A stretch of DNA of 64,000 bases. Source: Thermoplasmata archaeon (GTDB lineage: Archaea > Thermoplasmatota > Thermoplasmata > RBG-16-68-12). The DNA is taken from the NCBI GenBank assembly GCA_035632695.1, contig DASQGG010000019.1:3701-67700 (forward strand), read 5' to 3'. Position numbers and translations under genes: made by a program. Positions 32,058 to 47,290 of this stretch are shown here, piece by piece (within the stretch, counting starts at the first letter, position 1; each line of letters opens with the position of its first letter). The notes below the pieces were generated by a model that saw only the letters and a program-made list of their open reading frames with translations, did not search any database and was not told where the DNA came from.

Positions 32058-33170
32058 ATGCTTTCAAACCAGCTCTACGGAAGGAGGAAAATCCCCGTGG
32101 GAGAACCCGTGCGCGTGCTCCGAGAGGACGGCTCCGTCGACCCCGCGGTCGACCCGCACCTGTCGCGCTCGGACGCCGAGCGGCTGTACCGCGGGATGAT
32201 GCTCGAGCGGATCCTCGACAACCGGATGCTCGCCTTGCAACGCCAAGGACGGATCGGGTTTTACGGTCCCTCGATCGGCCAGGAGGCCGCCATCGTCGGG
32301 GCCGCGATGGCCATGGAAGCCAACGACTGGATCGTGCCCCAGTACCGCGAGCCGGGGGCGGCGCTCGCCCGCGGCATGCCGCTGAAGGAGCTCATCTGTC
32401 AGTTCATGACGAACAGCGGCGACCCGGCCAAAGGCCGCCAGATGCCCTGCCACTACGTGTACCGCAAGGGGAACTTCCTCTCGATCTCCTCGCCCGTGGG
32501 GACCCAGATCCCGCACGCCGTCGGAATCGGGTGGGCCATGAAGCTCCGGAAGGCCCGCGATGCGGTCCTCGTGTACTTCGGCGACGGCGCGACGAGCACC
32601 CCGGACTTCCACGTGTCCATGAACTTCGCGGGCGTGTTCGGCGTGCCCTGCGTGTTCCTCTGCAACAACAACCAGTGGGCGATTTCCCTCCCCGTATCCC
32701 GGCAGACGGCGACGGCCACGCTCGCGGAGAAGGCCCAAGCCTACGGCCTGCCGAGCCGGCGCGTGGACGGCATGGACGCGCTCGCCGTGTACGGCGCCAC
32801 GCGGACCGCGGCGATCGCCGCGCGCGAAGGTCGAGGACCCACTCTCATCGAGTCGCTCAGCTACCGGTTCGGGCCGCACTCCTCGAGCGACGACCCCGCC
32901 CGATATCGGGACGAGAAGGAGGCCGCCGTATGGCAGGCGCGGGATCCCCTCGTCCGGTTCCGCGCGTACCTGGAGGCGCAGGGCGGCTGGAACGACGACC
33001 GCGAGGCCGCATTGGAGAAGGCGATCGGCGACGAGATCACGCAAGCCGTTGCGGAGGCGGAGGCCATGCCTCCCGTCCCCGTCGAGTCGTTCTTCACGGA
33101 GGTCACCCAGGACGTGCCCTGGAACCTGCAGGAGGACCTCGCCGAGGCGAGATCCGTGCCGAGGGGATGA
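32058..33170 (+). CDS. 2-oxoacid dehydrogenase E1 component alpha subunit (pyruvate/branched-chain 2-oxoacid dehydrogenase type).
   Basis: The product has the TPP-binding motif (YFGDGATS...NFAG) and conserved LQRQGRIGFY and YRFGPHSSSDDP. Confidence 0.88.
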   Translation: MLSNQLYGRRKIPVGEPVRVLREDGSVDPAVDPHLSRSDAERLYRGMMLERILDNRMLALQRQGRIGFYGPSIGQEAAIVGAAMAMEANDWIVPQYREPGAALARGMPLKELICQFMTNSGDPAKGRQMPCHYVYRKGNFLSISSPVGTQIPHAVGIGWAMKLRKARDAVLVYFGDGATSTPDFHVSMNFAGVFGVPCVFLCNNNQWAISLPVSRQTATATLAEKAQAYGLPSRRVDGMDALAVYGATRTAAIAAREGRGPTLIESLSYRFGPHSSSDDPARYRDEKEAAVWQARDPLVRFRAYLEAQGGWNDDREAALEKAIGDEITQAVAEAEAMPPVPVESFFTEVTQDVPWNLQEDLAEARSVPRG

Positions 33171-33318
33171 GACCGCGGTCAAGAAAGGGAGCGCCGCACC
33201 GTCATCGCCGCCGCCGAGTGGCGGCAGCGCGGTCGCGCGCGCCCACGAACTCTTCAAGCAGGGCCGGACGTCGGAGGCCCTCGCCCTGGTCCGACCGCTT
33301 GTCCAACGGAAGGACGCC

Positions 33319-33756
33319 GTGGACCCGGAGGCCGCGGCTCTGGCCGCCGCCTGCCTGGGCTCCGAGGGCAAGCACCTGGAGGCCGCGCGGATTGATCAGA
33401 TGCTCTGCGACGCGAACCCCTCCAACCCGCAGGGCTGGAACAGCCTCGGCTTCGATCTCCTGAACGCTGGGGACCTCGAGGGCGCCCTGGGGGCGTACGG
33501 CCGTGCCCTCGAGCTGGAGCCCGGGCGCGCGAGCGCGCACTACAACGTCGCGCGGATTGCGGCGAGAATGGGGAACAAACCTAAGGCCATCGAGCATTTC
33601 GTGAAGGCCGTGGAACTCCAGTCGGACTACGTGGACCGGTTGGACGAGGACCCGGACCTGCGACCCCTGAAAGACGACCCGCAACTCCAGGACCGCCTCC
33701 CGGGCCAAGCCCCGAGCCAGGATCCCTACGCGGAATACTACGCAACGGAGTCGTGA
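33319..33756 (+). CDS. Small TPR-repeat protein inserted between the E1 alpha and E1 beta genes. The start is uncertain (GTG 33319 or ATG 33400).
   Basis: TPR-like helices are present (GWNSLGFDLLNAGDLEGALGAYGRALELEPGRASAHYNVARIAARMGNKPKAIEHFVKAVEL). There is no ATG in frame downstream of the E1 alpha stop before 33400. Confidence 0.35.
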   Translation: MDPEAAALAAACLGSEGKHLEAARIDQMLCDANPSNPQGWNSLGFDLLNAGDLEGALGAYGRALELEPGRASAHYNVARIAARMGNKPKAIEHFVKAVELQSDYVDRLDEDPDLRPLKDDPQLQDRLPGQAPSQDPYAEYYATES

Positions 33757-33762
33757 GCGCAT

Positions 33763-34734
33763 ATGCCGCCGATGACCATGGTGCAGGCCATCAACAACGC
33801 TCTCCGGGAGGAGATGCGCCGCGACGACCGCGTGATCGTCCTGGGGGAGGATGTGGGCAAGAACGGCGGCGTCTTTCGGTGCACGGAAGGCTTGATCGAC
33901 GAGTTCCCCGACCGCGTGTTCGACACGCCGCTCGCGGAGAGCGGGATCATCGGGAGCGCGATCGGGATGGCCCTGTACGGCCTGCGCCCGGTGCCGGAGA
34001 TCCAGTTCATGGACTTCATCTATCCCGCCTTCGACCAGATCGTCTCGGAGGCCGCGAAGATGCGGTACCGGAGCGGCGGACAGTACACGGTCCCCATGAC
34101 GATCCGCACGCCGTACGGCGGCGGGATCCGCGGCGGACACTACCACTCCCAGTCCAGCGAGGCCTACTTCTGCCACACCCCCGGGATCAAGGTCGTCGTG
34201 CCCTCGACCCCGGGCGACGCGAAAGGCCTCCTGACGTCGTCCATCCGCGACCCGGACCCCGTGCTGTTCTTGGAGCCCAAGAAGCTCTACCGCGCGTTCC
34301 GCGAGGACGTTCCGGAGGGCGAGCACACGGTCCCTCTGGGCAAGGCGCTCGTACGCCGCCCGGGCAAGGATGTGTCCTTGTTCGCTTGGGGCTACATGAC
34401 CCAGGTGTGTCTGGACGCGGCCCAAAAGGCCGCGGAGAAGGGCGTCGACGCCGAAGTCGTCGATCTCCGCACCCTGGTCCCCCTGGAACTGGACGCCATC
34501 CTCGCCTCCGTGAAGAAGACGGGGCGCGCGGTGGTCGTGTACGAGGCGCCGCGGACGGGCGGATATGGGGGCGAGATCAGCGCCCTCCTCGCGGAGCGGG
34601 CCATCGAGTACCTCCGCGGGCCCATTGTGCGTGTCGCCGGTTTCGACACCCCGTTCCCGTACGCCCTCGAGGACGTTTACATGCCGAACCCGGACCGCGT
34701 GCTCGCCGGGATCGACAGGGTCATGGCGTTCTAG
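33763..34734 (+). CDS. 2-oxoacid dehydrogenase E1 component beta subunit.
   Basis: A transketolase-like pyrimidine-binding domain is present (VIVLGEDVGKNGGVFRCTEGL, PLAESGIIGSAIGMALYGLRPV), with a C-terminal TK domain. Confidence 0.88.
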   Translation: MPPMTMVQAINNALREEMRRDDRVIVLGEDVGKNGGVFRCTEGLIDEFPDRVFDTPLAESGIIGSAIGMALYGLRPVPEIQFMDFIYPAFDQIVSEAAKMRYRSGGQYTVPMTIRTPYGGGIRGGHYHSQSSEAYFCHTPGIKVVVPSTPGDAKGLLTSSIRDPDPVLFLEPKKLYRAFREDVPEGEHTVPLGKALVRRPGKDVSLFAWGYMTQVCLDAAQKAAEKGVDAEVVDLRTLVPLELDAILASVKKTGRAVVVYEAPRTGGYGGEISALLAERAIEYLRGPIVRVAGFDTPFPYALEDVYMPNPDRVLAGIDRVMAF

Positions 34735-34746
34735 GCGAGCCGACCG

Positions 34747-35340
34747 TCATGCGCGGGCCTTCGTCGATACGTGGGAGAGGCTCCGTGCCACGGCGGCGCG
34801 ACGCATCGCTTCCTCGCCGCCGATCCGGAATACGCACTCCGGGGCACCCGTGGCGCGACACGCTTCCTCAAACCCGCCGAGGCCCTGGCGCCCGGTGAAA
34901 CCGCACAGCAGGCCCACGAGCACCCCGCGGCTGAAGTCGCACACGGGCCGGGTCCGGTGCTCTCCGTTCGTGATGGAGGCGTACGCCTCGAAGGCCATCG
35001 GATCCTTGCACACGAGGACCGCCTTCCCTTTCGCAAAGTCGAGCTCTTGGATTTCGAACGCGCCGAATCCACCTTCCGAATACTCCCGGATCGCACGTCG
35101 GTAGCCGCGCTCGGCCGCGGCCATGACCCCGTGGGCCAGGAGCGCCGCCGCATAGTGGACGCCACCGCGGAATCCCGAGTCGTAGAAGAGGATCGCGGCC
35201 GCGTCGCCCACGACCCCCTCCACGGACGTGCGGAGGCCGTGGAACGAGGTCTCGACGTCGAGCAAGCACATCCGCATCCCCGAATCCAGTAGCTCGCCGA
35301 GCCGGCCCTCGAGACGGATGCGTGGGCGCGAGGAGGGCAT
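34747..35340 (-). CDS. V4R (4-vinyl reductase) domain protein / hydrocarbon-binding protein family. The probable leaderless start is MPSSRPRIRLEG; an alternative ATG lies at 35355.
   Basis: The C-terminus has the V4R hallmark GFEEACRATGAPECVFRI. A TATA-like AAGGGTTATCC (35363-35379, minus) is centred about 27 bp upstream of ATG 35340. Confidence 0.6.
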   Translation of the reverse strand: MPSSRPRIRLEGRLGELLDSGMRMCLLDVETSFHGLRTSVEGVVGDAAAILFYDSGFRGGVHYAAALLAHGVMAAAERGYRRAIREYSEGGFGAFEIQELDFAKGKAVLVCKDPMAFEAYASITNGEHRTRPVCDFSRGVLVGLLCGFTGRQGLGGFEEACRATGAPECVFRIGGEEAMRRAAVARSLSHVSTKARA

Positions 35341-35875
35341 GAGACCCCGACTCAAGGCATCTAGGGATAACCCTTGGCTCCAGGTTATCGGATTCGCGAA
35401 CGGTCGGAGAAAGGAGGAGCGGGCCGGGATTCTGCGGACGGCCCGCGCCCCTCAACGAGACGCCTCCGCCATCGAGCCCGAAGGACCCGAGGCGAGATCC
35501 CGGAGGTCGCTAGCGCCGAGTCGGCCTGCACAAATCACGCCCACCGGTTTGTGCCACTCCTCCACGACCCTACTCCTCCCCGGAGGGGTATCGGAACGAG
35601 GCCATAAAGGAATTCCTCCTCCCTGAGCGCGCAGGGCCGTTACGCGCGCCCAATCGGAAGGACCGTCGAGGGCACCAGGAACACCGCCACGGCCTCGACG
35701 AACTCGGGTGCCATGTACGCCAGGGTGGGCACGCCGACCAACCGCACAACGCGGACGGCTGGCCGAATGGGCTCACGGACCAACGGGGCACCTGAGCGGG
35801 GCTTCATCTCGACGTGTCATCCCGTGCGCACCCGTAGGGGCACACCCTCGAGGGCTGCGCCGAGGCTCCGCGAGC

Positions 35876-35892
35876 GAAGGGTTATTACAATC
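35876..35892 (+). promoter_or_regulatory. BRE/TATA-like element GAAGGGTTATTACAATC upstream of the E2 gene.
   Basis: It lies about 40-50 bp upstream of ATG 35931 and matches the recurrent AAGG(G)TTAT family. Confidence 0.35.
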
Positions 35893-35930
35893 GGGGAGCT
35901 TCGACGCCCCGGCACGGCAAGGCGGTGCGA

Positions 35931-37172
35931 ATGGCCCGTGAGTTCAAGCTCCCCGACATCGGAGAAGGCGTCCACGAAGGCGAAATCACGAAATGGTTCG
36001 TGAAGGAGGGCGACGCCGTCAAGGAGAACGATCCTCTCGTGGAGGTCATGACGGACAAGGTCACGGTCCAGATCCCGTCGCCGGTGACCGGCAAGGTCGC
36101 GGAACGACGCGGCAAGGAAGGGGAGATCGTCCAGGTGGGCAGCACGATCGTCGTCTTCGGCGATGCGGGCGAGCCCGCGGCGATAGGGACGGCCGGGCCG
36201 AGTCCCTCCCGCGGGCCACCGGGTCCGCCGCCATCCCCCTCGGCACCGTCTGCACCGCCCCCGGCGCGCTCCGCCGAGGTCCTCGCGGCGCCTGCGATCC
36301 GGCGTCTCGCGCGCGAACTCGGGGTCGACCTCGCCTCCGTGCGAGGCACGGGGCCCTCGGGACGCATCTCGGAAGCGGACGTGCGAGCGGCGCAGCGCGG
36401 CCCATCACCGGCCCCCACGATCACACCCGCCGGGGCCCCAGGGCCCGCGGTCTCCCTGACGCCAGGGAATCGGGAGGAACGCATCCCCATCCACGGCCTG
36501 CGCAAGCGAATCTACGACAAGATGGCGAAGTCGAACACGACCGCCGCCCACTTCACGTACGTGGAGGAAGTCGACATGAGCCACCTGGTCCAGCTCCGCG
36601 AGCGGCTCAACGAGGCGGCCGCCCACAAAGACGTCAAGCTCACGTACCTTCCGTTCGTCGTCAAGGCGTGCATCGCGGCGCTCAAGGAGCACCCGACCCT
36701 GAACGCCTCCGTGGACGACGAGCACCAGGAGATCGTCGTCAAGGGGTACTACAACGTGGGCATCGCGACGGCGACCGACGAAGGACTCACGGTCACCGTG
36801 GTCCACGATGCGGACCAGAAGGACCTGTGGGCGCTCGCCCGCGAGATCGAGCGCCTGGCGACGGCGGCGCGCGACAAGAAGCTCAGCCTCCAGGACGTCC
36901 AGGGCTCGACGTTCACGATCACATCCCTGGGCAAGGAGGGCGGGATCCTCGCGACCCCGATCATCAACTGGCCCGAGGTCGCCATCCTGGGCATCCACAG
37001 GATCGAGAAGCGACCCGTCGTGCGGGACGACCACATCGTGATCCGCGACATGATGTACGTCTCCTGCTCGTTCGACCACCGCGTGATCGACGGCCACGTG
37101 GGCGCCGCATTCGTGCAGTCCGTGCGAGGGTACCTCGAGCACCCCGCGATGCTGTTCGTGGGTCTCGGGTGA
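35931..37172 (+). CDS. Dihydrolipoamide acyltransferase (E2 component). An alternative GTG start lies at 35925.
   Basis: The product has a lipoyl domain with a lipoyl-lysine (LVEVMTDKVTVQIPSP), an Ala/Pro-rich linker, an E3-binding domain (AAPAIRRLARELGVDLASVRGTGPSGRI) and a catalytic domain with DHRVIDG. Confidence 0.85.
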   Translation: MAREFKLPDIGEGVHEGEITKWFVKEGDAVKENDPLVEVMTDKVTVQIPSPVTGKVAERRGKEGEIVQVGSTIVVFGDAGEPAAIGTAGPSPSRGPPGPPPSPSAPSAPPPARSAEVLAAPAIRRLARELGVDLASVRGTGPSGRISEADVRAAQRGPSPAPTITPAGAPGPAVSLTPGNREERIPIHGLRKRIYDKMAKSNTTAAHFTYVEEVDMSHLVQLRERLNEAAAHKDVKLTYLPFVVKACIAALKEHPTLNASVDDEHQEIVVKGYYNVGIATATDEGLTVTVVHDADQKDLWALAREIERLATAARDKKLSLQDVQGSTFTITSLGKEGGILATPIINWPEVAILGIHRIEKRPVVRDDHIVIRDMMYVSCSFDHRVIDGHVGAAFVQSVRGYLEHPAMLFVGLG

Positions 37173-37314
37173 GCCCTTCGGATCTGAGACGCCGGTCAAG
37201 GACCACTGCACAGAAGCGGCGGTCCGTGCGGGGAATGTCTACGCCCCGCGCCATGGCCCCGCCAAAGGCTAAATAACCCCCGCGCGAATGGTGCACGGGC
37301 TTAGGAGAGATGCG

Positions 37315-38769
37315 ATGCGGTTCTCAGGAATCCTTCTCCCGCTAGTCGTGGCGACCGTCGTGGCCCTCGCCGCGTTCGCCGCTCCGGCTTCCGCCGCAGC
37401 GCCGGCCCCCGTGCCGACGTGGAAGGTGGGGCAATCCGTGGGCTACGGGACGAGCCTGGACCTCGGCAGCCTCGCGGACTCGTACCTCCTGAACGCGATC
37501 CGCAAGGACCCCGGGGCCTACAACATCACGACGATCAACCAGCTGAACGTGACGGGGACCGTGGACTCCTGGGAGGTCGACACGGTCACGAACGTCACGT
37601 CGACATACTACACGCTGGGTTCGCAGTCCGCGAGCGGCGTCAAGCTCCACGTCGCGGTCAACGTGACGCTGAACAACGTCCCCGTGGCCGGTACGTATCA
37701 AGGGACGATCGTCGCCGGCGCGTGCGCGCCACCCACGATCCCCAAGGGAAGCGGCACGGTCGGCGTGAACCTCGACGCCACGAGCCTCGCGGTGACCTGG
37801 GGCGCACGCCGCCTGCAGGTCTCGAACCTGGCCTATGTGAACGAGACGCAGAACGCAGTGGTCAACGCCAGCGTCGCCTTCCAGGGAACCCATCTCCCGC
37901 GGACGGACCTCAACCAGTCCTCCTGTACGTATACGGTGTCCTATGACAACCCCACGTTCACCCTGACCGTGAACACGCTGGATCAGGTGCGGGAGACGTA
38001 CACCCCGACCCTGGACTACTTCAACTTCCCAATCTCGGACAACAAGACTTGGTGGGCGAACACCACGGCGACCCTCGGGGCCACGTTCACCGGGACGATC
38101 AACGAGCAGGGCCTGAGCACCCGGGACGCACACTCCTTCTTCGACAACCTCACGAAGACGTTGGAGACCGCAGGGCTCACGCCGATGGGCCTGGATTCGT
38201 TCCCCATCGATCTCGCCAAGGTGTCCATCCTGGCAGGCCCGAGCTATATCGTGAACAATGGGGTCGTCACGGACTACCCGGTCCCGTCGAACACGCACCA
38301 GCGCGCGATCGCGGCCGTGAAGACCCTCTCGGACGACAACCAGTACCCGGTCTACCTGATCACGAGCGCCTCCTACACGTGCCCGTACACGGGCACGAAC
38401 CTCACCCTGCCCCTGACCTACGCCGCGGTCTACGCACCGGACTTCCCCTCCGCGGGCGCGGGCATGATCGTGGGTTACGACGTCCTCGTGTGCGCGGGAA
38501 CCGTGAGCGTACCGGCCTTTGAACTGACGAACACGAAACCTGCGGACGCCCAGAAGAAGATCGGGCAGACGGAGACGAACTACCAGATCGTCCCGCCCCC
38601 GCAGGGCAATGCCCTCGCGAACTTCTTCCTGGAGTCCCCGTACTGGGGCATCCTCCTGGTCGTCGTCGTGATCGCAGCCGTCGCAGCGGCCCTCCTCGTG
38701 CGCCGGCGCCGGCGGCCCACCCCGGCTCCCCCGCCCCCGCCGCCTTCCGGCGGACCGGGGACCCCATGA
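37315..38769 (+). CDS. Secreted, C-terminally anchored glycoprotein (paralogue of the 26442-27317 product) inserted between the E2 and E3 genes. An alternative start lies at 37288.
   Basis: The product has a signal peptide (MRFSGILLPLVVATVVALAAFAAPASA) and many NxS/T sequons. A C-terminal TM (ILLVVVVIAAVAAALLV) is followed by RRRRR and PTPAPPPPPPSGGPGTP. A TATA-like GGCTAAATAACCC lies at 37268-37285. Confidence 0.5.
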   Translation: MRFSGILLPLVVATVVALAAFAAPASAAAPAPVPTWKVGQSVGYGTSLDLGSLADSYLLNAIRKDPGAYNITTINQLNVTGTVDSWEVDTVTNVTSTYYTLGSQSASGVKLHVAVNVTLNNVPVAGTYQGTIVAGACAPPTIPKGSGTVGVNLDATSLAVTWGARRLQVSNLAYVNETQNAVVNASVAFQGTHLPRTDLNQSSCTYTVSYDNPTFTLTVNTLDQVRETYTPTLDYFNFPISDNKTWWANTTATLGATFTGTINEQGLSTRDAHSFFDNLTKTLETAGLTPMGLDSFPIDLAKVSILAGPSYIVNNGVVTDYPVPSNTHQRAIAAVKTLSDDNQYPVYLITSASYTCPYTGTNLTLPLTYAAVYAPDFPSAGAGMIVGYDVLVCAGTVSVPAFELTNTKPADAQKKIGQTETNYQIVPPPQGNALANFFLESPYWGILLVVVVIAAVAAALLVRRRRRPTPAPPPPPPSGGPGTP

Positions 38770-38832
38770 GGCCCGAATCCGTCCGTCCGCGCGCCCCAAA
38801 GGCATAAAGTCAGGCCCCACCTTCGGCCGTCC

Positions 38833-40236
38833 GTGGCGCGACACGTCGACGTGCTCGTCATCGGAGGCGGGCCGGGAGGCTACCCGGCCGCCATCCGGGC
38901 GGCGCAGCTGGGGAAGAAGGTCCTCCTGGTCGAGCGGCACAAGCTCGGCGGAGAGTGCCTGAACTACGGGTGCATCCCGAGCAAGGCCCTGATTCACGCC
39001 TCCAACGTGGTGAAGGCGATCGAGCGGGCCAAGGAATGGGGGATCGATGCGGGTCCGGCCAAGGTGGACATGGCGCGCCTCCAGGCATGGAAGCAGTCCG
39101 TGGTCGACAAGCTCGTGAGCGGGGTCGCGACCCTGGAGAAAGGGAACGGGGTCGAGGTGGCCTTCGCGGAGGCCTCCTTCCTCGACGCGAAGACCGTGCG
39201 GGCCCGCTACCCGGACGGCCGGACCGAGGACCTCGAGTTCGGGGACGCGATCATCGCGACGGGCGGGAGGCCGTCCGACCTGCCCGCGTTCCGGTTCGAC
39301 GGCAAGCGCGTGATCAGCACGAAGGAGGCGCTCGAGCTTCCCGCGGTCCCCAGGACCCTGCTCGTCATCGGCGGCGGGGTCTCCGGCCTGGAGATCGGCA
39401 CGTTCTACGCGAAGCTCGGGAGCAAGGTGGTCGTGATCGAGCTCCTGGAGCAGCTCCTCCCGGGCATGGACCCGGAGATCGTGCGGGTCGTCGAGCGACA
39501 CCTGCGGAAGCTCGGCGTCGAGTACCATGCGAAGTCCCAGGCCAAGGCGTGGCGGGAGGAGGGCGGCCAGGCCGTCATCGAGGCGGACACGCCGGACGGG
39601 CCGCTCACGGTCCGTGCCGACGTCATCCTGGTCACCGTGGGCCGGCGTCCGAACACGGACGGGCTGAACGCGGACAAGGCGGGGGTCAAGACGAACCCCA
39701 GAGGCTACGTCACCGTGGACAGCCAGCTCCGCACCTCGAACCGCCACGTGTTTGCGATCGGCGACGTCGTCGGCCAACCGTTCCTGGCGCACAAGGCGAC
39801 CATGGAGGGGCTGACCGCTGCGGAAGTCATCGGCGGGCAGCCCGTGGAGGTCGACTATCGGGCGATGCCCTCGGCGATCTTCACGGAGCCCGAGATCGCG
39901 ACCGTGGGCCTGCTCGAGCCCCAGGCTGCCGCGGAAGGGCGGGCGGTCAAGGTGGCCAAGGTCCCCTTCGGCGCGATCGGCCGCGCGCTCACGCAGGGTG
40001 AGTCGGACGGCTTCGTGAAGCTCGTTTCGGACCCGGACTCCAAGGTCCTCCTGGGCGCGGCGATCGTAGGGCCGGAGGCGAGCAACCTGATCAGCGAGCT
40101 CGCCCTCGGGATCGAGATGGGCGCGACGGTCGAGGACATCGCCCTCACGGTCCATCCCCACCCCACGCTGCCCGAAGGGATCATGGAGACCGCGGAGGCC
40201 GCCCTCGGGCAGGCGATCCACGTGCTCAATCGGTGA
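38833..40236 (+). CDS. lpdA: Dihydrolipoamide dehydrogenase (E3).
   Basis: The product has FAD-binding VLVIGGGPGGYPAAIRAAQLG, the redox-active disulfide GGECLNYGCIPSK, an NAD-binding GGGVSGLE and a C-terminal dimerisation HPHPTLPE. Confidence 0.9.
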   Translation: MARHVDVLVIGGGPGGYPAAIRAAQLGKKVLLVERHKLGGECLNYGCIPSKALIHASNVVKAIERAKEWGIDAGPAKVDMARLQAWKQSVVDKLVSGVATLEKGNGVEVAFAEASFLDAKTVRARYPDGRTEDLEFGDAIIATGGRPSDLPAFRFDGKRVISTKEALELPAVPRTLLVIGGGVSGLEIGTFYAKLGSKVVVIELLEQLLPGMDPEIVRVVERHLRKLGVEYHAKSQAKAWREEGGQAVIEADTPDGPLTVRADVILVTVGRRPNTDGLNADKAGVKTNPRGYVTVDSQLRTSNRHVFAIGDVVGQPFLAHKATMEGLTAAEVIGGQPVEVDYRAMPSAIFTEPEIATVGLLEPQAAAEGRAVKVAKVPFGAIGRALTQGESDGFVKLVSDPDSKVLLGAAIVGPEASNLISELALGIEMGATVEDIALTVHPHPTLPEGIMETAEAALGQAIHVLNR

Positions 40237-40976
40237 CCCGAGGCCCAGGGATGCTCGAGACGACCGAGGGGACCGAGACGGAACCGGTCGTGGTCCGGGA
40301 CGCGTGGCTCCTCGATCTCGGGCGCATGGAGTACGGCCGGACCTGGGCGATCCAGAAGGCCCTCGTGACCCGGCGCGCGGAGGACGCGGTTTCGGATGGC
40401 CTCATCCTCGTGGAACACGATCCCGTGGTGACCCTGGGCCGGCGCGGGACCGACGCGGACGTCCTCACCGAGGGGCTGCCCGTATTCCGGGTCGAGCGCG
40501 GGGGCGAGGCGACGTTCCACGGCCCGGGGCAGCTCGTAGGCTATCCCATCCTGAAGCTCCCGGACCGCCTCGACGTGAAACGCCTGGTCACGAATCTCGA
40601 GGACGTCCTCATCGGGACGTGCACGGACTTCGGGATCGACGCCCGGCACGAGGGCCCGGAGCGCGGCGTCTGGGTCAGGACCCGGAAGATCGCCTCCATC
40701 GGCCTCGCGGTCCAGAGGGGCGTCACGTTCCACGGCTTCGCACTGAACGTGACCACGGACCTCTCCTACTTCCTGAAGATCCGGCCCTGCGGCCATGCGG
40801 GAACGATCATGACCTCCATGGCGAAGGAGCTCGGACGGAACGTGGACGTGGAAGACGTCCGCGCGTCCGTGATCCAGCACTTTCAGAGCGTGTTCGGGTT
40901 CACCCTGCGCCTCGTCACGATGGCGGAGTTGCTTCCCGAGGGCGCGCCGACTCCGCCTGGCCCCGGAAGGCCTTGA
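40233..40976 (+). CDS. lipB: Octanoyl (lipoyl) transferase LipB. The start overlaps the E3 stop by 4 nt.
   Basis: LipB/LplA-family motifs are present (ILVEHDPVVTLGRRG, RGGEATFHGPGQLVGYPIL, KIASIGLAVQRGVTFHGFALNV) and a catalytic Lys lies in the KIA context. Confidence 0.8.
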   Translation: MTRGPGMLETTEGTETEPVVVRDAWLLDLGRMEYGRTWAIQKALVTRRAEDAVSDGLILVEHDPVVTLGRRGTDADVLTEGLPVFRVERGGEATFHGPGQLVGYPILKLPDRLDVKRLVTNLEDVLIGTCTDFGIDARHEGPERGVWVRTRKIASIGLAVQRGVTFHGFALNVTTDLSYFLKIRPCGHAGTIMTSMAKELGRNVDVEDVRASVIQHFQSVFGFTLRLVTMAELLPEGAPTPPGPGRP

Positions 40977-41955
40977 GCTGGCGGATCGCCTCGGGGATGA
41001 GCTGGAAGAGGTCGCCCACAATCCCGTAGTCGGCGATCTCGAAGATCGCGGCCTTGGGATCGTTGTTGATCGCGACGATCTTCGCGGCCTCCTGCATCCC
41101 GGCCAGGTGCTGGACCGCGCCGCTGATGCCCACCGCGATATAGAGGCTCGGCCGGACCGTCTTCCCCGTCTGTCCGACCTGGAGGGCCTTGGGCACCCAG
41201 CCCAGGTCGACGGGCTTGCGCGACGAGGCGACGGCGCCTCCGAGGAGGGAAGCGAGCTCCTCGAGCAGGGCGAAGTTCTTGGGATCGCCGAGGCCGAAGC
41301 CGCCGGACACGAGGATCTTCGCGTCGTCAATCTTGCGCGTCTCGTGAGTCTCCGTGGGTTTGAAGCCCACGATCTTTGTGTCGAAATCGGCGGGCTCGAA
41401 GACCACGGTCTCCCGGACGACCTCCCCGGTCCGGGAGCGGTCCCGCGGCGGCATCGGGAACACGTTCCAGCGGGCGGAGGCCATCTGGGGCCGGTGCTCC
41501 TCGCAGTGGATGTGGGCCAGGCTCTTCCCGCCGAACGCGGGGCGGATCATGTCCAGGAAGCCCTCCTCGGTCACGTCGAAGCGCACGCAGTCCGCCGCGA
41601 GGCCCGTGTCGATCGCGGCATGGAGCCGCCCGCCGAGGTCCCTCCCGTTCTTGGACGCGCCGAACAGGATGACCTCGGGGTTGTACTTCCAGCGCAGGGT
41701 CGCCATGACCCTCGTGAACGGGCGGGAGGTGTAGAACTCGAGCCGCGGGTCTTCCACGAGCAGGATACGGTCGCACCCGCACTCGATCGCCTGGCGCGCG
41801 AGCGGCTCGACATTCCAGCCCGGCAGGATGCCCGTGAGGTCCGCGCCCCGCTTGTCCGCGATGCGCCGCGCCTCGCCGATGAGCTGCACGCTCACGTCGC
41901 GGAGGGCCCCGTTGCGGGCTTCCAGGAACACCCACACGCCCCGGTGCTCCGCCAT
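40915..41955 (-). CDS. etfA: Electron transfer flavoprotein alpha subunit (EtfA/FixB). The start is trimmed to MAEHRGVWVF.
   Basis: An N-terminal ETF domain and a C-terminal FAD-binding domain are present (ILVSGGFGLGDPKNFALLEELASLLGGAVASSRKPVDLGWVPKALQVGQTGKTVRPSLYIAVGISGAVQHLAGM). Confidence 0.85.
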   Translation of the reverse strand: MAEHRGVWVFLEARNGALRDVSVQLIGEARRIADKRGADLTGILPGWNVEPLARQAIECGCDRILLVEDPRLEFYTSRPFTRVMATLRWKYNPEVILFGASKNGRDLGGRLHAAIDTGLAADCVRFDVTEEGFLDMIRPAFGGKSLAHIHCEEHRPQMASARWNVFPMPPRDRSRTGEVVRETVVFEPADFDTKIVGFKPTETHETRKIDDAKILVSGGFGLGDPKNFALLEELASLLGGAVASSRKPVDLGWVPKALQVGQTGKTVRPSLYIAVGISGAVQHLAGMQEAAKIVAINNDPKAAIFEIADYGIVGDLFQLIPEAIRQLKAFRGQAESARPREATPPS

Positions 41956-41981
41956 GGGCGGCGGAGAGGGATGCGCGTGGG

Positions 41982-42800
41982 TCACGGGATCACCCGGTCC
42001 CGTCGCAGGGCCTCGAGGAGCAGGGAGACCGCGATCGTGGGCTCCTCCTGGAAGATCTGGCCCTGCCGGCTCGGGAGCTGGACCGTGTCGACCTTGGCGA
42101 CGATCGTGGGCGAGCCTTTGAGGCCGATCTGGGACGGTTCGAGTCCGAGGTCCGCCGCGCTCCAGTGCTGGACGAGCCCGCCGCGCTTCACACGGACCTT
42201 GCCCGTCAACGTGGGCTGGCGCGGCTTGTTGCATCCGAAGTCCACGGTGACGACGCACGGCATCGGGGCCTCCCAGGTCTCGGCCCCGTCTTCGATCATC
42301 CGGACCCCGCGCACGCGGCGGTCCACGATCTCGACGCCGGAGCAGTACGTGATCTGAGGGATGTCCATGTGCCCCGCGATCCCGGGGCCGACGTGGCCCG
42401 TGGACGCGTCCGTGGTCTCCTCGCCGCACAGGATGAGGTCCACGCCGCCGATCTTCTCGATGGCTCGCTCCAGGGTGAGCGCCGTCGGCACCGTGTCCGA
42501 ACCGCCGAGGTTGCGGTCCGTGACCAGGAACCCGCGGTCCGCGCCCATCGCGATGGCCCGCTCGAGGCTCTCATCGAACGACGTGGGCCCCATGGAGAGG
42601 ACGATGATCTCGCCGCCGTGCTGCTCCCGGAGCAGGAGGGCCATCTCGAGGGCGTTCTGGTCGGGCGGGTTGATCTCGCTCGGCACGCCGACCCGCTTGA
42701 GCGTCTTCGTGACGGGGTCGACTTGGAGCTCCTGGGCCTTCGGCACCTGCTTCAGGCACACCACGATCCGCAGCCCCTGCTTCGCGGCGGTGTCCGTCAC
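41982..42800 (-). CDS. etfB: Electron transfer flavoprotein beta subunit (EtfB/FixA).
   Basis: It has an EtfB fold (RIVVCLKQVPKAQELQVDP...IIVLSMGP...DLILCGEETTDASTGHVGPGIAGHMDIP). It overlaps the fixC stop by 4 nt. Confidence 0.85.
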   Translation of the reverse strand: MTDTAAKQGLRIVVCLKQVPKAQELQVDPVTKTLKRVGVPSEINPPDQNALEMALLLREQHGGEIIVLSMGPTSFDESLERAIAMGADRGFLVTDRNLGGSDTVPTALTLERAIEKIGGVDLILCGEETTDASTGHVGPGIAGHMDIPQITYCSGVEIVDRRVRGVRMIEDGAETWEAPMPCVVTVDFGCNKPRQPTLTGKVRVKRGGLVQHWSAADLGLEPSQIGLKGSPTIVAKVDTVQLPSRQGQIFQEEPTIAVSLLLEALRRDRVIP

Positions 42801-44092
42801 ATGGATCGCGCTCCCTTGACGAGGTCCATGAGGAGAGCGAGCTTGGACACCCCGGAGGCGTTGGCTTCCTGCAGGACCGTTTCCAGCAAGCGCTCGCGCG
42901 GCGCGCCGTCCACGCGGTACATCCGCTCCGCGAGGTCGATGAGCAGACGCGGGTACACGTCGAACAGGCGCTCGTTCTTCAGGTACAGCGGGGCGCGGGA
43001 GAAGGTCTCGAGGTCCGTGAGGACGCGGCGGTCCCGCAGCCGCCGTTCGTAGGCCGCCAGGTTGGCCGCGCTCATCCCGCCCGCGACCCGCGCCGCCTCC
43101 GCGGCCTCGCCCGCCGCGATCCCCGAGGCCATCGCGAGGTCCACGCCCCGGAACGTATAGCCGTTGTTGATCAGGAAGCCGGCGCTATCGCCGACGACGA
43201 GGACACCGTCCCCCACGAGCTGGGGCATCATGCGGCGCCCGAGTTCGGGCACCAGATGGGCGCTGTACTCCGCGAGCTTGCCGCCCTTCACCAGCTTCTG
43301 GACCGAGGGATGCATCCGGAACCTCGTCTGGACGTCCTGGACCTCGACCTTCTTGCGGGCCAGATCCTCGGACGAAACGACGAGGCCCAGGGAGAGGGAC
43401 GACTTGTTCGTGTACAGGAAGCCGCCACCCCGGAGGCCGAGGGACGCGTAGCCCGCGTACACGAACGCGGCCCCTTCCTTCTCCCCCAGACCGAAGCGCT
43501 CCTGGATCGTCTCCGCGGGGAGCTCGATCGTCTCCTTGACGCCCACGCTGACCTCGCGGGGCTCCAGGTCCGCCTTGAGCCCCGCCTTGCGCACGAGGGT
43601 CGAGGTCGCGCCCTCCGCGATCACCACGAGGTCCGCGGACACCCGGTCGTTCGGCGCCACGAAGACGCCCCGGACGCGGCCGTCCGCCCGCCACAGGTCA
43701 TCCACGCGGATCCCCGTGACGAGCATGGCCCCGGCCTCCTCCGCCTTCTTTGCGAGCCACGCGTCGAACCTGGGCCGCAGGGCGGTGAAGCTGGCCGCCT
43801 TGCCTTCCCCGAGCTTGGGCGAGTCGAACCGGATTCCGAGGGAGGCGCCCTCCGTCAGGAAGGCGAGGTTCTCCTGGGTCACGAGTCGCTCGACGGGACA
43901 GTCCTTGGCCCAGTCCGGGACGAGGTCGAAGAGCGGCCAGGCGTAGATGCGCCCGCCGAACATGTTCTTGGAACCCGGCGCGCGGCCGCGCTCCACGAGC
44001 AGGACGGAGAACTTCTTCCGGGCCAGGGTGAGCGCCGCGGCGGAGCCGGCGGGGCCCGCGCCCACGACGATTGCGTCAAAACGCTCCGCCAT
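42797..44092 (-). CDS. fixC: FixC-type ETF:quinone oxidoreductase-like flavoprotein. The start is trimmed to MAERFDAIVVGAG.
   Basis: FAD-binding DAIVVGAGPAGSAAALTLA is present. It is about 431 aa and sits in the conserved position upstream of etfB-etfA, as in fixABCX loci. Confidence 0.8.
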   Translation of the reverse strand: MAERFDAIVVGAGPAGSAAALTLARKKFSVLLVERGRAPGSKNMFGGRIYAWPLFDLVPDWAKDCPVERLVTQENLAFLTEGASLGIRFDSPKLGEGKAASFTALRPRFDAWLAKKAEEAGAMLVTGIRVDDLWRADGRVRGVFVAPNDRVSADLVVIAEGATSTLVRKAGLKADLEPREVSVGVKETIELPAETIQERFGLGEKEGAAFVYAGYASLGLRGGGFLYTNKSSLSLGLVVSSEDLARKKVEVQDVQTRFRMHPSVQKLVKGGKLAEYSAHLVPELGRRMMPQLVGDGVLVVGDSAGFLINNGYTFRGVDLAMASGIAAGEAAEAARVAGGMSAANLAAYERRLRDRRVLTDLETFSRAPLYLKNERLFDVYPRLLIDLAERMYRVDGAPRERLLETVLQEANASGVSKLALLMDLVKGARSM

Positions 44093-44145
44093 GGTCCGAG
44101 ACCCGAAGCGGAAAAGCGGGGCGAGTAAAAGCCTTTGTGTGGGCC

Positions 44146-44748
44146 TCAACGGGTCGGCATGGGCTGGAGCTGAAATTCGCACCGGTCCTTGCCCTGCGCG
44201 CGGCACGCGGCCTCCTCGCAAAGGATCTCCGTGCCGAACAAGCGGCTGGCGATGCCCGCAATCCAGCCCGCGAGCAGATGGCAAACGGGCTTCTTGGACG
44301 GCCCGTACATCTCCGCGCTCGCGCTGTTCTCGAGCGTGATGACCCCGCGCCGCCGCTCCACATCGAGGGAGCCCACCTCGAACCGTCCCCATCCCGCGAG
44401 CGCCAGGATGTCGGCCATCCGTTTCGCCGTCTCGAACGGGGTCTCCTCGAGAGGGAAGCCGCGGAGCAGATCGGGGATCTCATGTACGCCTTCCTTGCCG
44501 CTCTTCTCCCCCGCGAGGTAGAGGATGCCCTTCGTGGAGGCGCCCACGGTCTGCTCCATCTGCCGCTGCAGGTTCACAAGGAGTGCAGGCCGGATGAGCA
44601 CGTGTCGATCGCCGAACCACTCCAGCCGGCCTCCGGAGGAATCGAGTCGGAGACTTCGTGCCAGGAGGGCACGGGCCTCTTCGGGACGCAGCGTGGCGAG
44701 CTCCTTCTCGCCATCCGGCGGGTCGCCTCCCGAGTCGGGTGGGGCCAT
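44146..44748 (-). CDS. V4R-domain protein (second copy), first gene of the fixC-etfB-etfA operon.
   Basis: The C-terminal V4R hallmark EILCEEAACRAQGKDRCEFQL is present. The product is 200 aa. It is on the same strand as fixC, 53 bp upstream of it. Confidence 0.6.
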   Translation of the reverse strand: MAPPDSGGDPPDGEKELATLRPEEARALLARSLRLDSSGGRLEWFGDRHVLIRPALLVNLQRQMEQTVGASTKGILYLAGEKSGKEGVHEIPDLLRGFPLEETPFETAKRMADILALAGWGRFEVGSLDVERRRGVITLENSASAEMYGPSKKPVCHLLAGWIAGIASRLFGTEILCEEAACRAQGKDRCEFQLQPMPTR

Positions 44749-44896
44749 GGACGATCCTCGCGCCGCGGGGCGCGGACCGTCTACCCCGGCCGTCCCGACT
44801 AGTACGTTTCTCCATGAGTCCGGCCACTGATAACGTGCGAGGACGGTGCGTCCGTGCTCGTGGCCAACCCTTTAGTACCCTCGTTCGCTTCCGACG

Positions 44897-45220
44897 ATGG
44901 AGCCCATGCCGGAGCCCCCGAAACCCGACGCGTCGAAGGCCCTAACCGCGGACGACCGCGTGGGCCTGGACAAGTTCGAGTTCGACGAGGAGCCCTTCAT
45001 CACGGTGGACACCCAGGTGTGCCGCACGTGCGTCGAGAAGCCCTGCCTGTACGTGTGCCCGACCCAGGTGTACCGGAAGGAGAAGGGGGAGCTCGTGTAC
45101 AACACGGAGGGCTGCATCGAGCTCGGCGCCTGCGTGATCGTGTGCCGGCACATCGGCAGGGGCGCCATCCGCTGGTCGTATCCCCGCGGGTCGTACGGGG
45201 TCGGATTCCGCTTCGGCTGA
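44897..45220 (+). CDS. fixX: FixX-like ferredoxin-like protein.
   Basis: Cys clusters CRTCVEKPCLYVCP and CIELGACVIVC are typical of FixX. It is divergent from the V4R-fixC-etfBA operon. Confidence 0.65.
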   Translation: MEPMPEPPKPDASKALTADDRVGLDKFEFDEEPFITVDTQVCRTCVEKPCLYVCPTQVYRKEKGELVYNTEGCIELGACVIVCRHIGRGAIRWSYPRGSYGVGFRFG

Positions 45221-45277
45221 TCGGATCGCCCCCGGAACCGCGAGAGCTATTAAGGCCCGCGTGCTTGCGTGCATCCG

Positions 45278-46174
45278 ATGTTGACGGCGGGGAAGCCGGA
45301 GTGGTTGCGCGTCCGTCCACCGGGAGGACCGAGCTACGCGCACCTCAAAGACCTCCTCCGGGACCTGAACCTCCACACCGTGTGCGAGGAGGCCCGCTGC
45401 CCCAACGTGGGGGAGTGCTGGGGCGGGGGCACGGCCACGATCATGCTGCTCGGCGACGTCTGCACCCGAGGTTGCCGCTTCTGCGCGGTCACGTCGGGCA
45501 ACCCCCACGGCCTCGTGGACCTCGCGGAGCCTCGCCGGGTGGCCGCGGCGATCGCGGAGCTGGGACTCGGCTACGTGGTCCTGACGTCCGTGGACCGCGA
45601 CGACTTGCCCGACGGCGGCGCGGCGCAGTTCGCGGAGACGATCCGGGAGATCAAGGAACGGGACTCGGACATCCTGGTCGAAGCGCTGATCCCGGACTTC
45701 CAGGGGGACCTGGAGGCCGTCCGGACCGTGGTCGACGCGGGTCCGGACGTCCTCGACCACAACCTGGAGACCGTCCGGCGCCTGCAAGGCGTGGCCCGGG
45801 ACCGACGGGCGAACTACGAGCAGAGCCTGTCCGTCCTCCGCGGGGCGAAAGGGATGCGGGACGGCCTGATCACGAAGTCCTCCCTCATGCTCGGGCTCGG
45901 GGAGACCCGGGACGAGCTCCTGGAGGCGATGCGCGACCTCCGCGCGAACCGCGTGGACCTCCTGACCTTGGGCCAGTACCTGCGGCCGAGCGCGTGGCAT
46001 CTTCCCGTGCAGGAGTACGTCTCCCCGGAATCGTTCGACGAACTCCGGGCCGCCGGGGAGGCCCTCGGGTTCACGTACGTCGCGGCGGGACCGCTCGTCC
46101 GGTCGTCGTACCGCGCGGGCGAGTTCTTCCTCGAGAGGGTGCTCCGGGAGCGGCGCGGACGCACGGGGGCGTGA
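45278..46174 (+). CDS. lipA: Lipoyl synthase LipA. The probable leaderless ATG is at 45278; an alternative GTG lies at 45269.
   Basis: The product has a radical-SAM [10 protein letters not shown] plus an N-terminal auxiliary cluster motif [18 protein letters not shown]-like GCTATTAAGGCC is centred about 27 bp upstream of ATG 45278. Confidence 0.9.
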
Positions 46175-46177
46175 GCC

Positions 46178-47290
46178 ATGGCCCAGGAGGAGCTGCTGCG
46201 GATTGTCGACCTGGACGGGACGTACGACTCGAAGCGGGAGCCGAAACTCCCGGCGGAGACCCTGATCCGAGGCTATCGAAACCTCCTCCTGATCCGTGTG
46301 CTCGACGGCCGCATGCTGTCCCTCCAGCGGCAAGGACGGATCGGCTTCTACGTCCCGAGCACGGGCGAGGAGGCGTGCCAAGTGGGGAGCGCCCTCGCGC
46401 TGAACCGGGAGGACTGGGTCTTCCCCGCGTACCGCGAGCCCGGGTGCGCCCTGACGCGGGGGCTCGACCTCAAGCTCATGATTGCCCAGGAGTACGGGAA
46501 CAGCCTCGACGTGAACAAGGGTCGGCAGATGCCCAACCACTTCGGGTGGCGGTCCATCAACTACGTCTCCGCCTCGAGCCCCGTGGGCACGCAGATCCCC
46601 CATGCGGTCGGCACGGCGTGGGCCGCGCAGATCCGGGGCGACAAGCTGGTCACCCTCGTCTACTTCGGCGACGGGGCGACGAGCGGGAGCGACTTCCACG
46701 TCGGGATGAACTTCGCGGGCGTGTTCAAGACGCCCACCGTGTTCTTCTGCAAGAACAACCAGTACGCGATCTCCTTGCCCATGGCCCGACAGACCGCGGT
46801 GAAGTCCCTCGCGCAGAAGGCCCTCGCGTACGGGTTCGAGGGCGTCCGCGTGGACGGGAACGACCTCCTCGCTGTGTACGCGGCCACGAAGGCCGCGGCG
46901 GACAAGGCGCGCGCGGGCGGTGGCCCGACGATGATCGAGGCGGTCACGTACCGGTTGGGGCCGCACTCCTCGAGCGACGATCCCACGCGGTACCGCTCCA
47001 AGGAGGAGGTCTCCGAGTGGCAGCGCCAGGATCCCGTGGAGCGCATGCGGAAGTACCTCGAGCTTAAGGGGCTGTGGACGGAGGAGCGGGAGGCGTCCCT
47101 GAAGAAGGAGCTCGATGACCTCATCACGGCCACGATCAAGGAGGTCGAGCGGGCGCCGCCCCCCGCGCTCGAGAGCCTCTTCGCCGACGTGTTCGAGGAG
47201 CTCACGCCCGCGCTGAAGGACCAGATGGAGGAGTACCTGAAGAGCGGCGAGCGGCGGCGTCCGGAGATCCTAGACAAGTTCCCCCTCTGA
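46178..47290 (+). CDS. Second (orphan) 2-oxoacid dehydrogenase E1 alpha subunit paralogue, located 3 bp after lipA.
   Basis: It is clearly paralogous to the 32058-33170 product (LQRQGRIGFY, YFGDGATSGSDFHVGMNFAG, YRLGPHSSSDDP). No E1 beta gene follows it. Confidence 0.85.
   Translation: MAQEELLRIVDLDGTYDSKREPKLPAETLIRGYRNLLLIRVLDGRMLSLQRQGRIGFYVPSTGEEACQVGSALALNREDWVFPAYREPGCALTRGLDLKLMIAQEYGNSLDVNKGRQMPNHFGWRSINYVSASSPVGTQIPHAVGTAWAAQIRGDKLVTLVYFGDGATSGSDFHVGMNFAGVFKTPTVFFCKNNQYAISLPMARQTAVKSLAQKALAYGFEGVRVDGNDLLAVYAATKAAADKARAGGGPTMIEAVTYRLGPHSSSDDPTRYRSKEEVSEWQRQDPVERMRKYLELKGLWTEEREASLKKELDDLITATIKEVERAPPPALESLFADVFEELTPALKDQMEEYLKSGERRRPEILDKFPL

Follow-up and report, generated by a model that had tools for sequence, protein, structure and literature searches.

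The DNA analysed here is a stretch of 64,000 nucleotides (hereafter, the window) of contig DASQGG010000019.1 from a Thermoplasmata archaeon of soil or sediment, with a G+C content of about 67%, and our subject is two of its genes, V4R-1 and V4R-2, which encode proteins of the V4R (hydrocarbon-binding) family. Both are located on the minus strand within a supercluster of genes for a 2-oxoacid (branched-chain keto-acid) dehydrogenase (BCKDH) and the FixABCX system. The dehydrogenase cluster (32058-40976, plus strand) consists of the genes for E1-alpha (E1a, 32058-33170), a TPR protein (approximately 33208-33756), E1-beta (E1b, 33763-34734), E2 (35925-37172), a membrane or secreted protein of 493 amino acids (aa; 37288-38769), E3 (38833-40236) and LipB (40233-40976), and it is broken between E1b and E2 by the oppositely oriented V4R-1 (34747-35340, minus strand, 197 aa), as the first-pass annotation of this DNA had described. 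The order continues on the minus strand with etfA/fixB (40915-41955), etfB/fixA (41982-42800), fixC (42797-44092) and V4R-2 (44146-44748, 200 aa) and, divergently from V4R-2, on the plus strand with a fixX-like ferredoxin gene (44897-45220), lipA (45269-46174) and the gene of a second E1-alpha (46178-47290). The 570-bp spacer between V4R-1 and E2 also contains a structured-RNA-like element (approximately 35409-35583, minus strand, in the V4R-1 direction), to which we return below.

The loci closest to this one all belong to metagenome-assembled genomes (MAGs) of Thermoplasmata, recovered from Angelo soils (EA_x) and Rifle (RBG_19FT_COMBO_69_17) or contained in a soil-MAG catalogue. The co-location of FixABCX with BCKDH has been noted for the order Ca. 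Angelarchaeales, in a paper that nowhere mentions V4R (PMC9038741). From the MAG sources of the relatives and this matching co-location, we infer that the source lineage is one order of soil Thermoplasmata, RBG-16-68-12 / Ca. Angelarchaeales.

The open reading frame (ORF) of V4R-1 extends over 34747-35355 when read from a TTG codon; the ATG at 35340 is the likely start. The resulting 197-aa protein is identical to VEY12_01175, an NCBI entry derived from a MAG labelled "Thermoplasmata archaeon", and the TATA-like sequence GGTTATCC (35365-35372, minus strand) lies 25-32 nt upstream of this ATG. It had been stated that two ORFs at the ends of the interval 34747-44748 encode proteins of about 200 aa with a C-terminal V4R hallmark, and both ORFs (on the minus strand) and motifs were verified: the motif is E-E-A-C-R-A-T-G-A-P-E-C-V-F in V4R-1 and E-A-A-C-R-A-Q-G-K-D-R-C-E-F in V4R-2, each satisfying the pattern E-x2-C-x-A-x-G-x3-C-x-F. 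The Pfam V4R profile (PF02830, gathering score 31 bits) matches V4R-2 at 66.9 bits (E 1.7e-18) and V4R-1 at 28.3 bits (E 1.8e-6), the latter slightly under the gathering score. Most orthologues of V4R-1 have a precomputed PF02830 match, and V4R-1 itself also matches the V4R-2 profile; the two proteins share 25% identity (E 2e-8), and V4R-1 represents a sister family to V4R-2.

The V4R fold, too, is borne out by Pfam and by confident structure predictions, the top structural matches of which are the sensor domains of MopR, PoxR and DmpR. The AlphaFold models, built on 48 homologues for V4R-2 and 35 for V4R-1, reached predicted local distance difference test (pLDDT) scores of 87.7 and 86.2, respectively, and these sensor domains were retrieved first by Foldseek among the PDB structures, with E 5e-11 for V4R-2 and 8e-8 for V4R-1; MJ1460 (E 9e-6 and 7e-4), Bet3/TRAPPC3 and H-NOX followed for both. 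When the PDB was searched by sequence, V4R-2 matched the full sensor domain of CapR/DmpR, MopR and PoxR (E 3e-7 with the single sequence, 5e-12 with the family profile) as well as MJ1460, while V4R-1 matched nothing, either as a single sequence or as a profile, and was placed by the structure search alone. V4R-2 aligns with the sensor domains from residue ~22 on, although Pfam XylR_N does not match it at E <= 0.01. In V4R-2 a beta-hairpin is predicted at the N-terminus (residues 33-49); in V4R-1 the hairpin is absent, helices take its place, and the C-terminal helix is basic. Neither Pfam nor the models revealed a DNA-binding, ATPase or other output domain in either protein, all of whose 197-200 aa lie inside the fold. 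Thus, V4R-1 and V4R-2 are confirmed as real stand-alone single-domain V4R proteins.

The best match by both sequence and structure is the effector-binding A domain (XylR_N + V4R; PDB 6iy8, 5kbe, 5fru) of XylR, DmpR (CapR), MopR and PoxR. The alignment of V4R-2 covers this sensor domain entirely, with the Cys/Glu/Cys/Cys zinc ligands retained, and the predicted N-terminal hairpin of V4R-2 resembles the arm by which the two sensor domains of the DmpR dimer interlock. In contrast to these sigma54 activators, V4R-1 and V4R-2 have no AAA+ or helix-turn-helix (HTH) domain, share only 17-24% identity with them and, in the case of V4R-1, lack the hairpin. The first-pass annotation had proposed the two proteins as candidate sensors for the operons next to them; this is unproven, neither protein having a DNA-binding or any other output domain. 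Membership in MobR was rejected (30.5 bits against an NCBIfam cut-off of 999). The archaeal protein MJ1460 (COG1719; PDB 2oso/2osd) is likewise a single-domain V4R protein with a structural match at E ~1e-5 to 1e-3, but it is shorter (163 aa) and distant, and the families of V4R-1 and V4R-2 are lineage-specific. Bet3/TRAPPC3 (eukaryotic and Asgard) and H-NOX have the alpha/beta fold in common with them; the similarity is, however, far weaker, and the V4R loci show no sign of a tethering complex or of haem.

As to the genomic position of V4R-2, each GTDB species was scanned through a single genome, which gave 25 Thermoplasmata loci. In all 25 of these V4R-2-selected loci the gene adjoins fixX and/or fixC, and it is located between them whenever the assembly includes both flanks. 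A sample collected independently of V4R-2 (117 metagenome loci recovered via the RNA-like element) gave the same picture: in 16 of the 16 loci that extend past fixC, V4R-2 lies between fixX and fixC. The claim of a conserved association with the genes of electron-transferring flavoproteins and of the 2-oxoacid dehydrogenase complex therefore stands for V4R-2 and fix throughout one order. It does not stand for V4R-1 and the dehydrogenase, as V4R-1 is present in few of the loci and absent from three of the six closest relatives (see below).

V4R-2 has a conserved upstream region (44798-44835, minus strand) that comprises a BRE/TATA-like element (B recognition element and TATA box), GAAACGTACTAGTC (44798-44811, minus strand; consensus GAAAC-TTCTATAG in relatives), and a conserved box, CGTTATCAG (44827-44835, minus strand), kept in the divergent fixX/V4R-2 spacer of nearly all relatives. 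This box may represent an operator or else a further promoter. The same 148-bp spacer contains a TATA-like element of fixX at about 44864-44880 on the plus strand. The 53-bp spacer that follows V4R-2 contains another BRE/TATA-like element, AAAGGCTTTTAC (44125-44136, minus strand), in front of fixC, and this one is kept with small variations in all 26 sequences (the window and the 25 loci), including those in which other genes are inserted at this place and the single one (L004) from which V4R-2 is missing. In the 5' region of fixC (44092-44136 of the window, minus strand, and its equivalents in the 25 loci), AAAGGCTTTTAC is followed by CCGCTTTTCCGC..GGG, a motif which may be an initiator, a hairpin of the 5' untranslated region or a regulator site. 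V4R-2 had been described as heading a V4R-fixC-etfB-etfA operon; the gene order was found as described, while the operon was not upheld, given the promoter-like element of fixC in the 53-bp spacer and the insertions in at least six relatives. As a general statement, V4R-2 as the first cistron of fixCBA is rejected on these two observations. In view of the promoter-like elements of its own and of fixC, the inserted genes and a divergence much faster than that of the Fix subunits, V4R-2 is a clade-specific companion gene of the fix locus, and neither membership in an operon nor a role as a subunit is demonstrated for it.

V4R-1 presents a different case. It occupies the gap between E2 and E1b in only 6 of the 97 loci anchored on the RNA-like element, which counts against the association proposed for it. 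Among the genome loci, V4R-1 is found in the gap only in the subclade nearest to the window (L004, L005 and L022); in the more distant subclade, none of the gap ORFs was recognised by hmmsearch as V4R-1. Even among the six loci whose E1-beta is at least 90% identical to that of the window, it is present in three and absent from three. Relatives of V4R-1 at 43-52% identity reside elsewhere, next to OsmC, MFS and phosphoenolpyruvate carboxykinase genes (L006) or ABC/CbiQ and Roadblock/LC7 genes (L035). The spacing of GGTTATCC implies that V4R-1 has its own leaderless-type transcript; GGTTATCC together with GATAACC at 35383-35389 forms an inverted repeat, and the CCAAGG-TTATCC element is kept in L004, L005 and L022. 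The link of V4R-1 to the dehydrogenase is hence positional and not conserved: V4R-1 is best read as a recent, patchy insertion into a gap whose conserved occupants are the RNA-like element and a small protein with four transmembrane segments (4-TM).

The four zinc ligands of DmpR, which adjoin its phenol pocket, are Cys151, Glu172, Cys177 and Cys185 (PMC7264223). In HMMER alignments they coincide with C156, E179, C182 and C190 of V4R-2, where the aligned Glu precedes the second Cys by three residues and would be residue 174 of DmpR by the chain offset, against 172 in that paper; the putative zinc ligands of V4R-1 are C134, E158, C161 and C169 (numbering of the 197-aa protein). The C, E, C and C and the Phe that follows are invariant throughout both families, and the V4R-2 family has 27 invariant residues in all. 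The hallmark motif is the C-terminal part of this Cys-Glu-Cys-Cys metal/thiol site and therefore not a marker of the ligand pocket. As judged from these residues, both proteins are predicted to bind zinc.

The same residues admit a second reading, in which V4R-2 (and V4R-1) would be a thiol/zinc redox switch like the methanogen regulator MsvR: oxidation or zinc release would alter the conformation and so report the redox state to the electron-bifurcating Fix system, with no metabolite involved. MsvR is archaeal too, and the C-x25-C-x7-C spacing of V4R-2 (C156/C182/C190) and V4R-1 (C134/C161/C169) equals that of MsvR; in the Methanosarcina protein (MaMsvR) the cysteines at this spacing are C206, C232 and C240, and their mutation alters redox-dependent DNA binding (PMC3729527). 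Additional near-invariant cysteines adjoin the site in both families (C177 in V4R-2; C25 and C111 in V4R-1), and the neighbouring genes encode flavin and Fe-S redox enzymes. However, the N-terminal DNA-binding HTH, through which MsvR exerts its output, is absent from V4R-1 and V4R-2, membership in MsvR was rejected (27.1 bits, over the V4R part only, against a cut-off of 220 bits), and the corresponding residues hold structural zinc in MopR, PoxR and DmpR, which come from aerobes (PMC7264223). We regard such a switch as unlikely; it is compatible with ligand binding and does not exclude it.

The analogy drawn earlier between these proteins and XylR/DmpR breaks down at the residues that anchor the ligand. 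His106 and Trp134, the phenol-anchoring residues of MopR, align in the profile alignment with Leu115 and Leu139 of V4R-2. In DmpR the phenol-anchoring residues are H100 and W128 (PMC7264223). Judging by the residues lining the pocket, a phenol-type effector is unlikely for V4R-2 and an aliphatic or hydrophobic ligand is possible. An aliphatic pocket would also suit a protein that carries or chaperones a hydrophobic cofactor or substrate, either channelling it, as BchJ is proposed to do, or burying an acyl chain, as Bet3 does; quinone could be handed to FixC, for example, or octanoyl/lipoyl or branched-chain acyl groups to LipB, LipA or E2. The fold is indeed related to that of Bet3/TRAPPC3, which was crystallised with covalent palmitate (6aq3 is among the matches), the NCBIfam model of BchJ, a V4R protein whose proposed role is not regulation but the handling of a hydrophobic substrate, matches weakly, and among the neighbours are LipA, LipB, lipoyl-E2 and a FixC resembling electron transfer flavoprotein:quinone oxidoreductase. 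Yet the BchJ matches (26.0 and 19.4 bits) are below the TIGR02019 cut-off of 74.3 bits, so that membership is rejected, the cluster has no chlorophyll genes, the similarity to Bet3 is far below that to the sensor domains of the regulators, and L004 does without V4R-2 though its lipA, lipB and fix genes are intact. A carrier function thus appears improbable to us.

With respect to the wider family, stand-alone V4R proteins are widespread (4782 cluster representatives match the profile of the superfamily), while the families of V4R-1 and V4R-2 together make up approximately six clusters at 50% identity. No named NCBIfam family fits either of them, all scores being far under the cut-offs, and several orthologues carry the name 'predicted hydrocarbon-binding protein' given by the Joint Genome Institute (JGI); the view that stand-alone members of these two families are uncharacterised proved correct. 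A search with a joint V4R-1/V4R-2 profile added two proteins and found no close relatives outside the lineage. The nearest outgroups of both families are tandem 2xV4R proteins, one of which, P0088, is fused to Robl_LC7; the sequence contexts of P0080 and P0086 are too short to inform. This fusion, in a close outgroup, and the Robl_LC7 gene that adjoins a distant V4R-1-like gene in L035 recall what has been suggested for other archaeal V4R/TRAPPC3-like proteins, namely that they are components of a signalling module of Roadblock/LC7 proteins and small GTPases. For V4R-1 and V4R-2 this is very improbable: among the genes called in the syntenic loci that were inspected, none encodes a Roadblock protein or a GTPase, the annotation of the window covering the cluster only.

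For V4R domains, binding of hydrophobic ligands and signalling in cis or in trans have been suggested (PMC2253512). As V4R-1 and V4R-2 have no output domain, any signalling by them must be in trans. The best overall explanation, which we put forward as possible rather than probable, is that both are V4R sensor modules, V4R-2 being a trans-acting companion of the fix locus and V4R-1 an unlinked insertion. The course of events might be as follows. V4R-2, with a promoter of its own and a place between two divergent units, fixX-lipA-E1a2 and fixC-etfB-etfA, would most likely act in trans via protein-protein contact, as a modulator responding to a ligand or to redox conditions. It would bind a small metabolite that is not phenolic and is probably aliphatic or hydrophobic or, alternatively, report the redox state via its three-cysteine site. 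Its target would be the FixABCX/BCKDH system or a regulator of either. In a more specific form, which we consider quite unlikely, V4R-2 would be the dedicated sensory partner of the electron-bifurcating FixABCX, a domain-minimal, trans-acting effector domain of the XylR type. If true, V4R-2 would tie electron bifurcation, or the expression of the fix, BCKDH and lipoylation genes, to a branched-chain catabolite or to the thiol/zinc redox state, and a stand-alone V4R protein of archaea would for the first time have a function assigned to it.

Several observations weigh against assigning V4R-2 such a role at the fix locus. Any interaction, ligand or regulatory effect is a proposal made from synteny and fold. 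The V4R-2 loci all belong to one order, and inherited synteny alone could explain the association. In L004 (a contig of 427 kb), the sole exception, fixX and fixC are adjacent, about 170 bp apart, without V4R-2, and V4R-2 is therefore dispensable for the locus. The identity of V4R-2 among relatives is 42-55%, against 68-89% for FixC and 76-92% for FixX, and within the cluster only the 493-aa protein evolves faster; such rapid divergence argues against a stoichiometric subunit. In L001, L009, L011, L012, L014 and L034, V4R-2 and fixC are separated by heterogeneous insertions, among them genes for a membrane protein and a nucleotidyltransferase and an island of low-GC or defence type, V4R-2 staying by fixX each time. 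Finally, no recurring motif connects the promoters of the cluster, i.e., there is no regulon signal: CGTTATCAG, considered as a shared operator, occurs once in the window and at one mismatch is no more frequent than expected by chance. As a side observation, the low-GC islands at this insertion hot spot (L034 10600-20540, L009 10560-13760) carry genes of TIR-domain, DprA-like and MmeI-type restriction-modification proteins.

Accordingly, V4R-1 and V4R-2 might have no functional link to their neighbours at all and be lineage-specific passengers in permissive intergenic or divergent-promoter gaps, carried along by synteny in a young clade. As all the evidence is synteny within one order, this is the strongest competitor of the sensor-module explanation, although we find it somewhat unlikely. 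The patchiness of V4R-1, whose relatives reside in unrelated contexts, the insertions at the junction of V4R-2 and fixC, the loss in L004, the fast divergence of V4R-2 and the restriction of both families to this lineage are all in line with it. What it does not account for is that V4R-2 keeps its place by fixX in all other loci (the 25 and the 16 of 16 alike) despite nearby insertions and rearrangements, and that it combines its invariant residues with a conserved upstream region.

We know of no stand-alone archaeal V4R protein with a demonstrated function, and V4R-1 and V4R-2 are additional members of a known but functionally obscure protein type. The association of V4R-2 with fix is a usable lead in this respect, offering a candidate partner, a non-aromatic ligand class and three cysteines. 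Its value is limited by the positional nature of the association, confined to one uncultured order, and by the fact that the part of the original claim concerning V4R-1 fails on conservation.

Within the interval studied, the RNA-like element beside V4R-1 is perhaps more novel than the V4R genes. A TATA-like TTTATGG (about 35602-35610, minus strand; TTTTATGG in relatives) is located ~28 nt upstream of it. The element is kept at the nucleotide level in every locus that covers the gap, including the subclade without V4R-1 (e.g., L017 17675-17776; L013 11047-11148; L004 9202-9404). Its core is 82-92% identical, and a stretch of ~30 nt is invariant in 14 of 14 genome loci, in which the E2 proteins are ~70% identical. 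An exact 25-mer of the element was found in 117 metagenome stretches, where the context is constant: E2 (-), the element (+), the 4-TM protein (+), V4R-1 if present, and E1-beta (-). The element occurs in forms of 102, ~130 and ~180 nt, which differ in the length of one hairpin. The predicted fold is a three-way junction of -51 kcal/mol (z = -2.2) on the V4R-1 strand, which is also the strand favoured by the G-U pairs, and three copies of GGAGGAG are able to pair alternatively with a single 3' CUCCUCC. For the outer helix there is too little covariation to serve as proof. The covariance model detected a single copy in each locus and, across 0.9 Mb, no others; the 2834-bp contig L039, in which two oppositely oriented copies accompany mirrored E2 genes, is most likely a palindrome produced in assembly. 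Rfam gave only chance-level matches (E 1.3 and 9.1), and there is no tRNA in the element. A small ORF is an unlikely reading, as tblastx matches were obtained in all six frames, all codon positions are invariant in the genome-derived set and the length variants are not multiples of three.

In relatives, the element is followed by the Shine-Dalgarno-like GGGGGAGGAG, after which the 4-TM gene starts. The 4-TM protein (124-139 aa, with weak similarity to DUF7144/DUF2127) is encoded 3' of the element in 92 of the 97 related loci, e.g., at L005 5140-5514, L004 9446-9841 and L002 15932-16351, and is only 35-50% conserved, as opposed to the near-invariant element. Its gene is absent from 35356-35924 of the window; because of this loss the element directly precedes V4R-1 here. 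A conserved 5' leader, a riboswitch-like element and a small RNA are the candidate interpretations.

The remaining genes of the supercluster have some peculiarities as well. The TPR-repeat protein between E1-alpha and E1-beta, an unusual conserved insert for an E1 operon, is found at the same place in every related locus reaching that far. The 493-aa protein between E2 and E3 has an N-terminal signal or transmembrane segment, a C-terminal transmembrane segment and a Pro-rich tail, and belongs to no family in Pfam or NCBIfam; some relatives have a copy (31-65% identity) and others do not. LipB is bona fide (209 bits against a cut-off of 155 bits), while LipA is assigned from its position and the LIAS_N and Radical_SAM domains of its orthologues. 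To our knowledge, acyl carrier protein is absent from archaea, which leaves the octanoyl donor for LipB unclear. The convergent lipB and etfA genes overlap at their 3' ends by 62 bp (40915-40976), and comparable overlaps occur in relatives, e.g., L001 12470-12534. The second E1-alpha is an orphan without an E1-beta partner, 55% identical to the first and located directly 3' of lipA, a position at which it is kept in all relatives.

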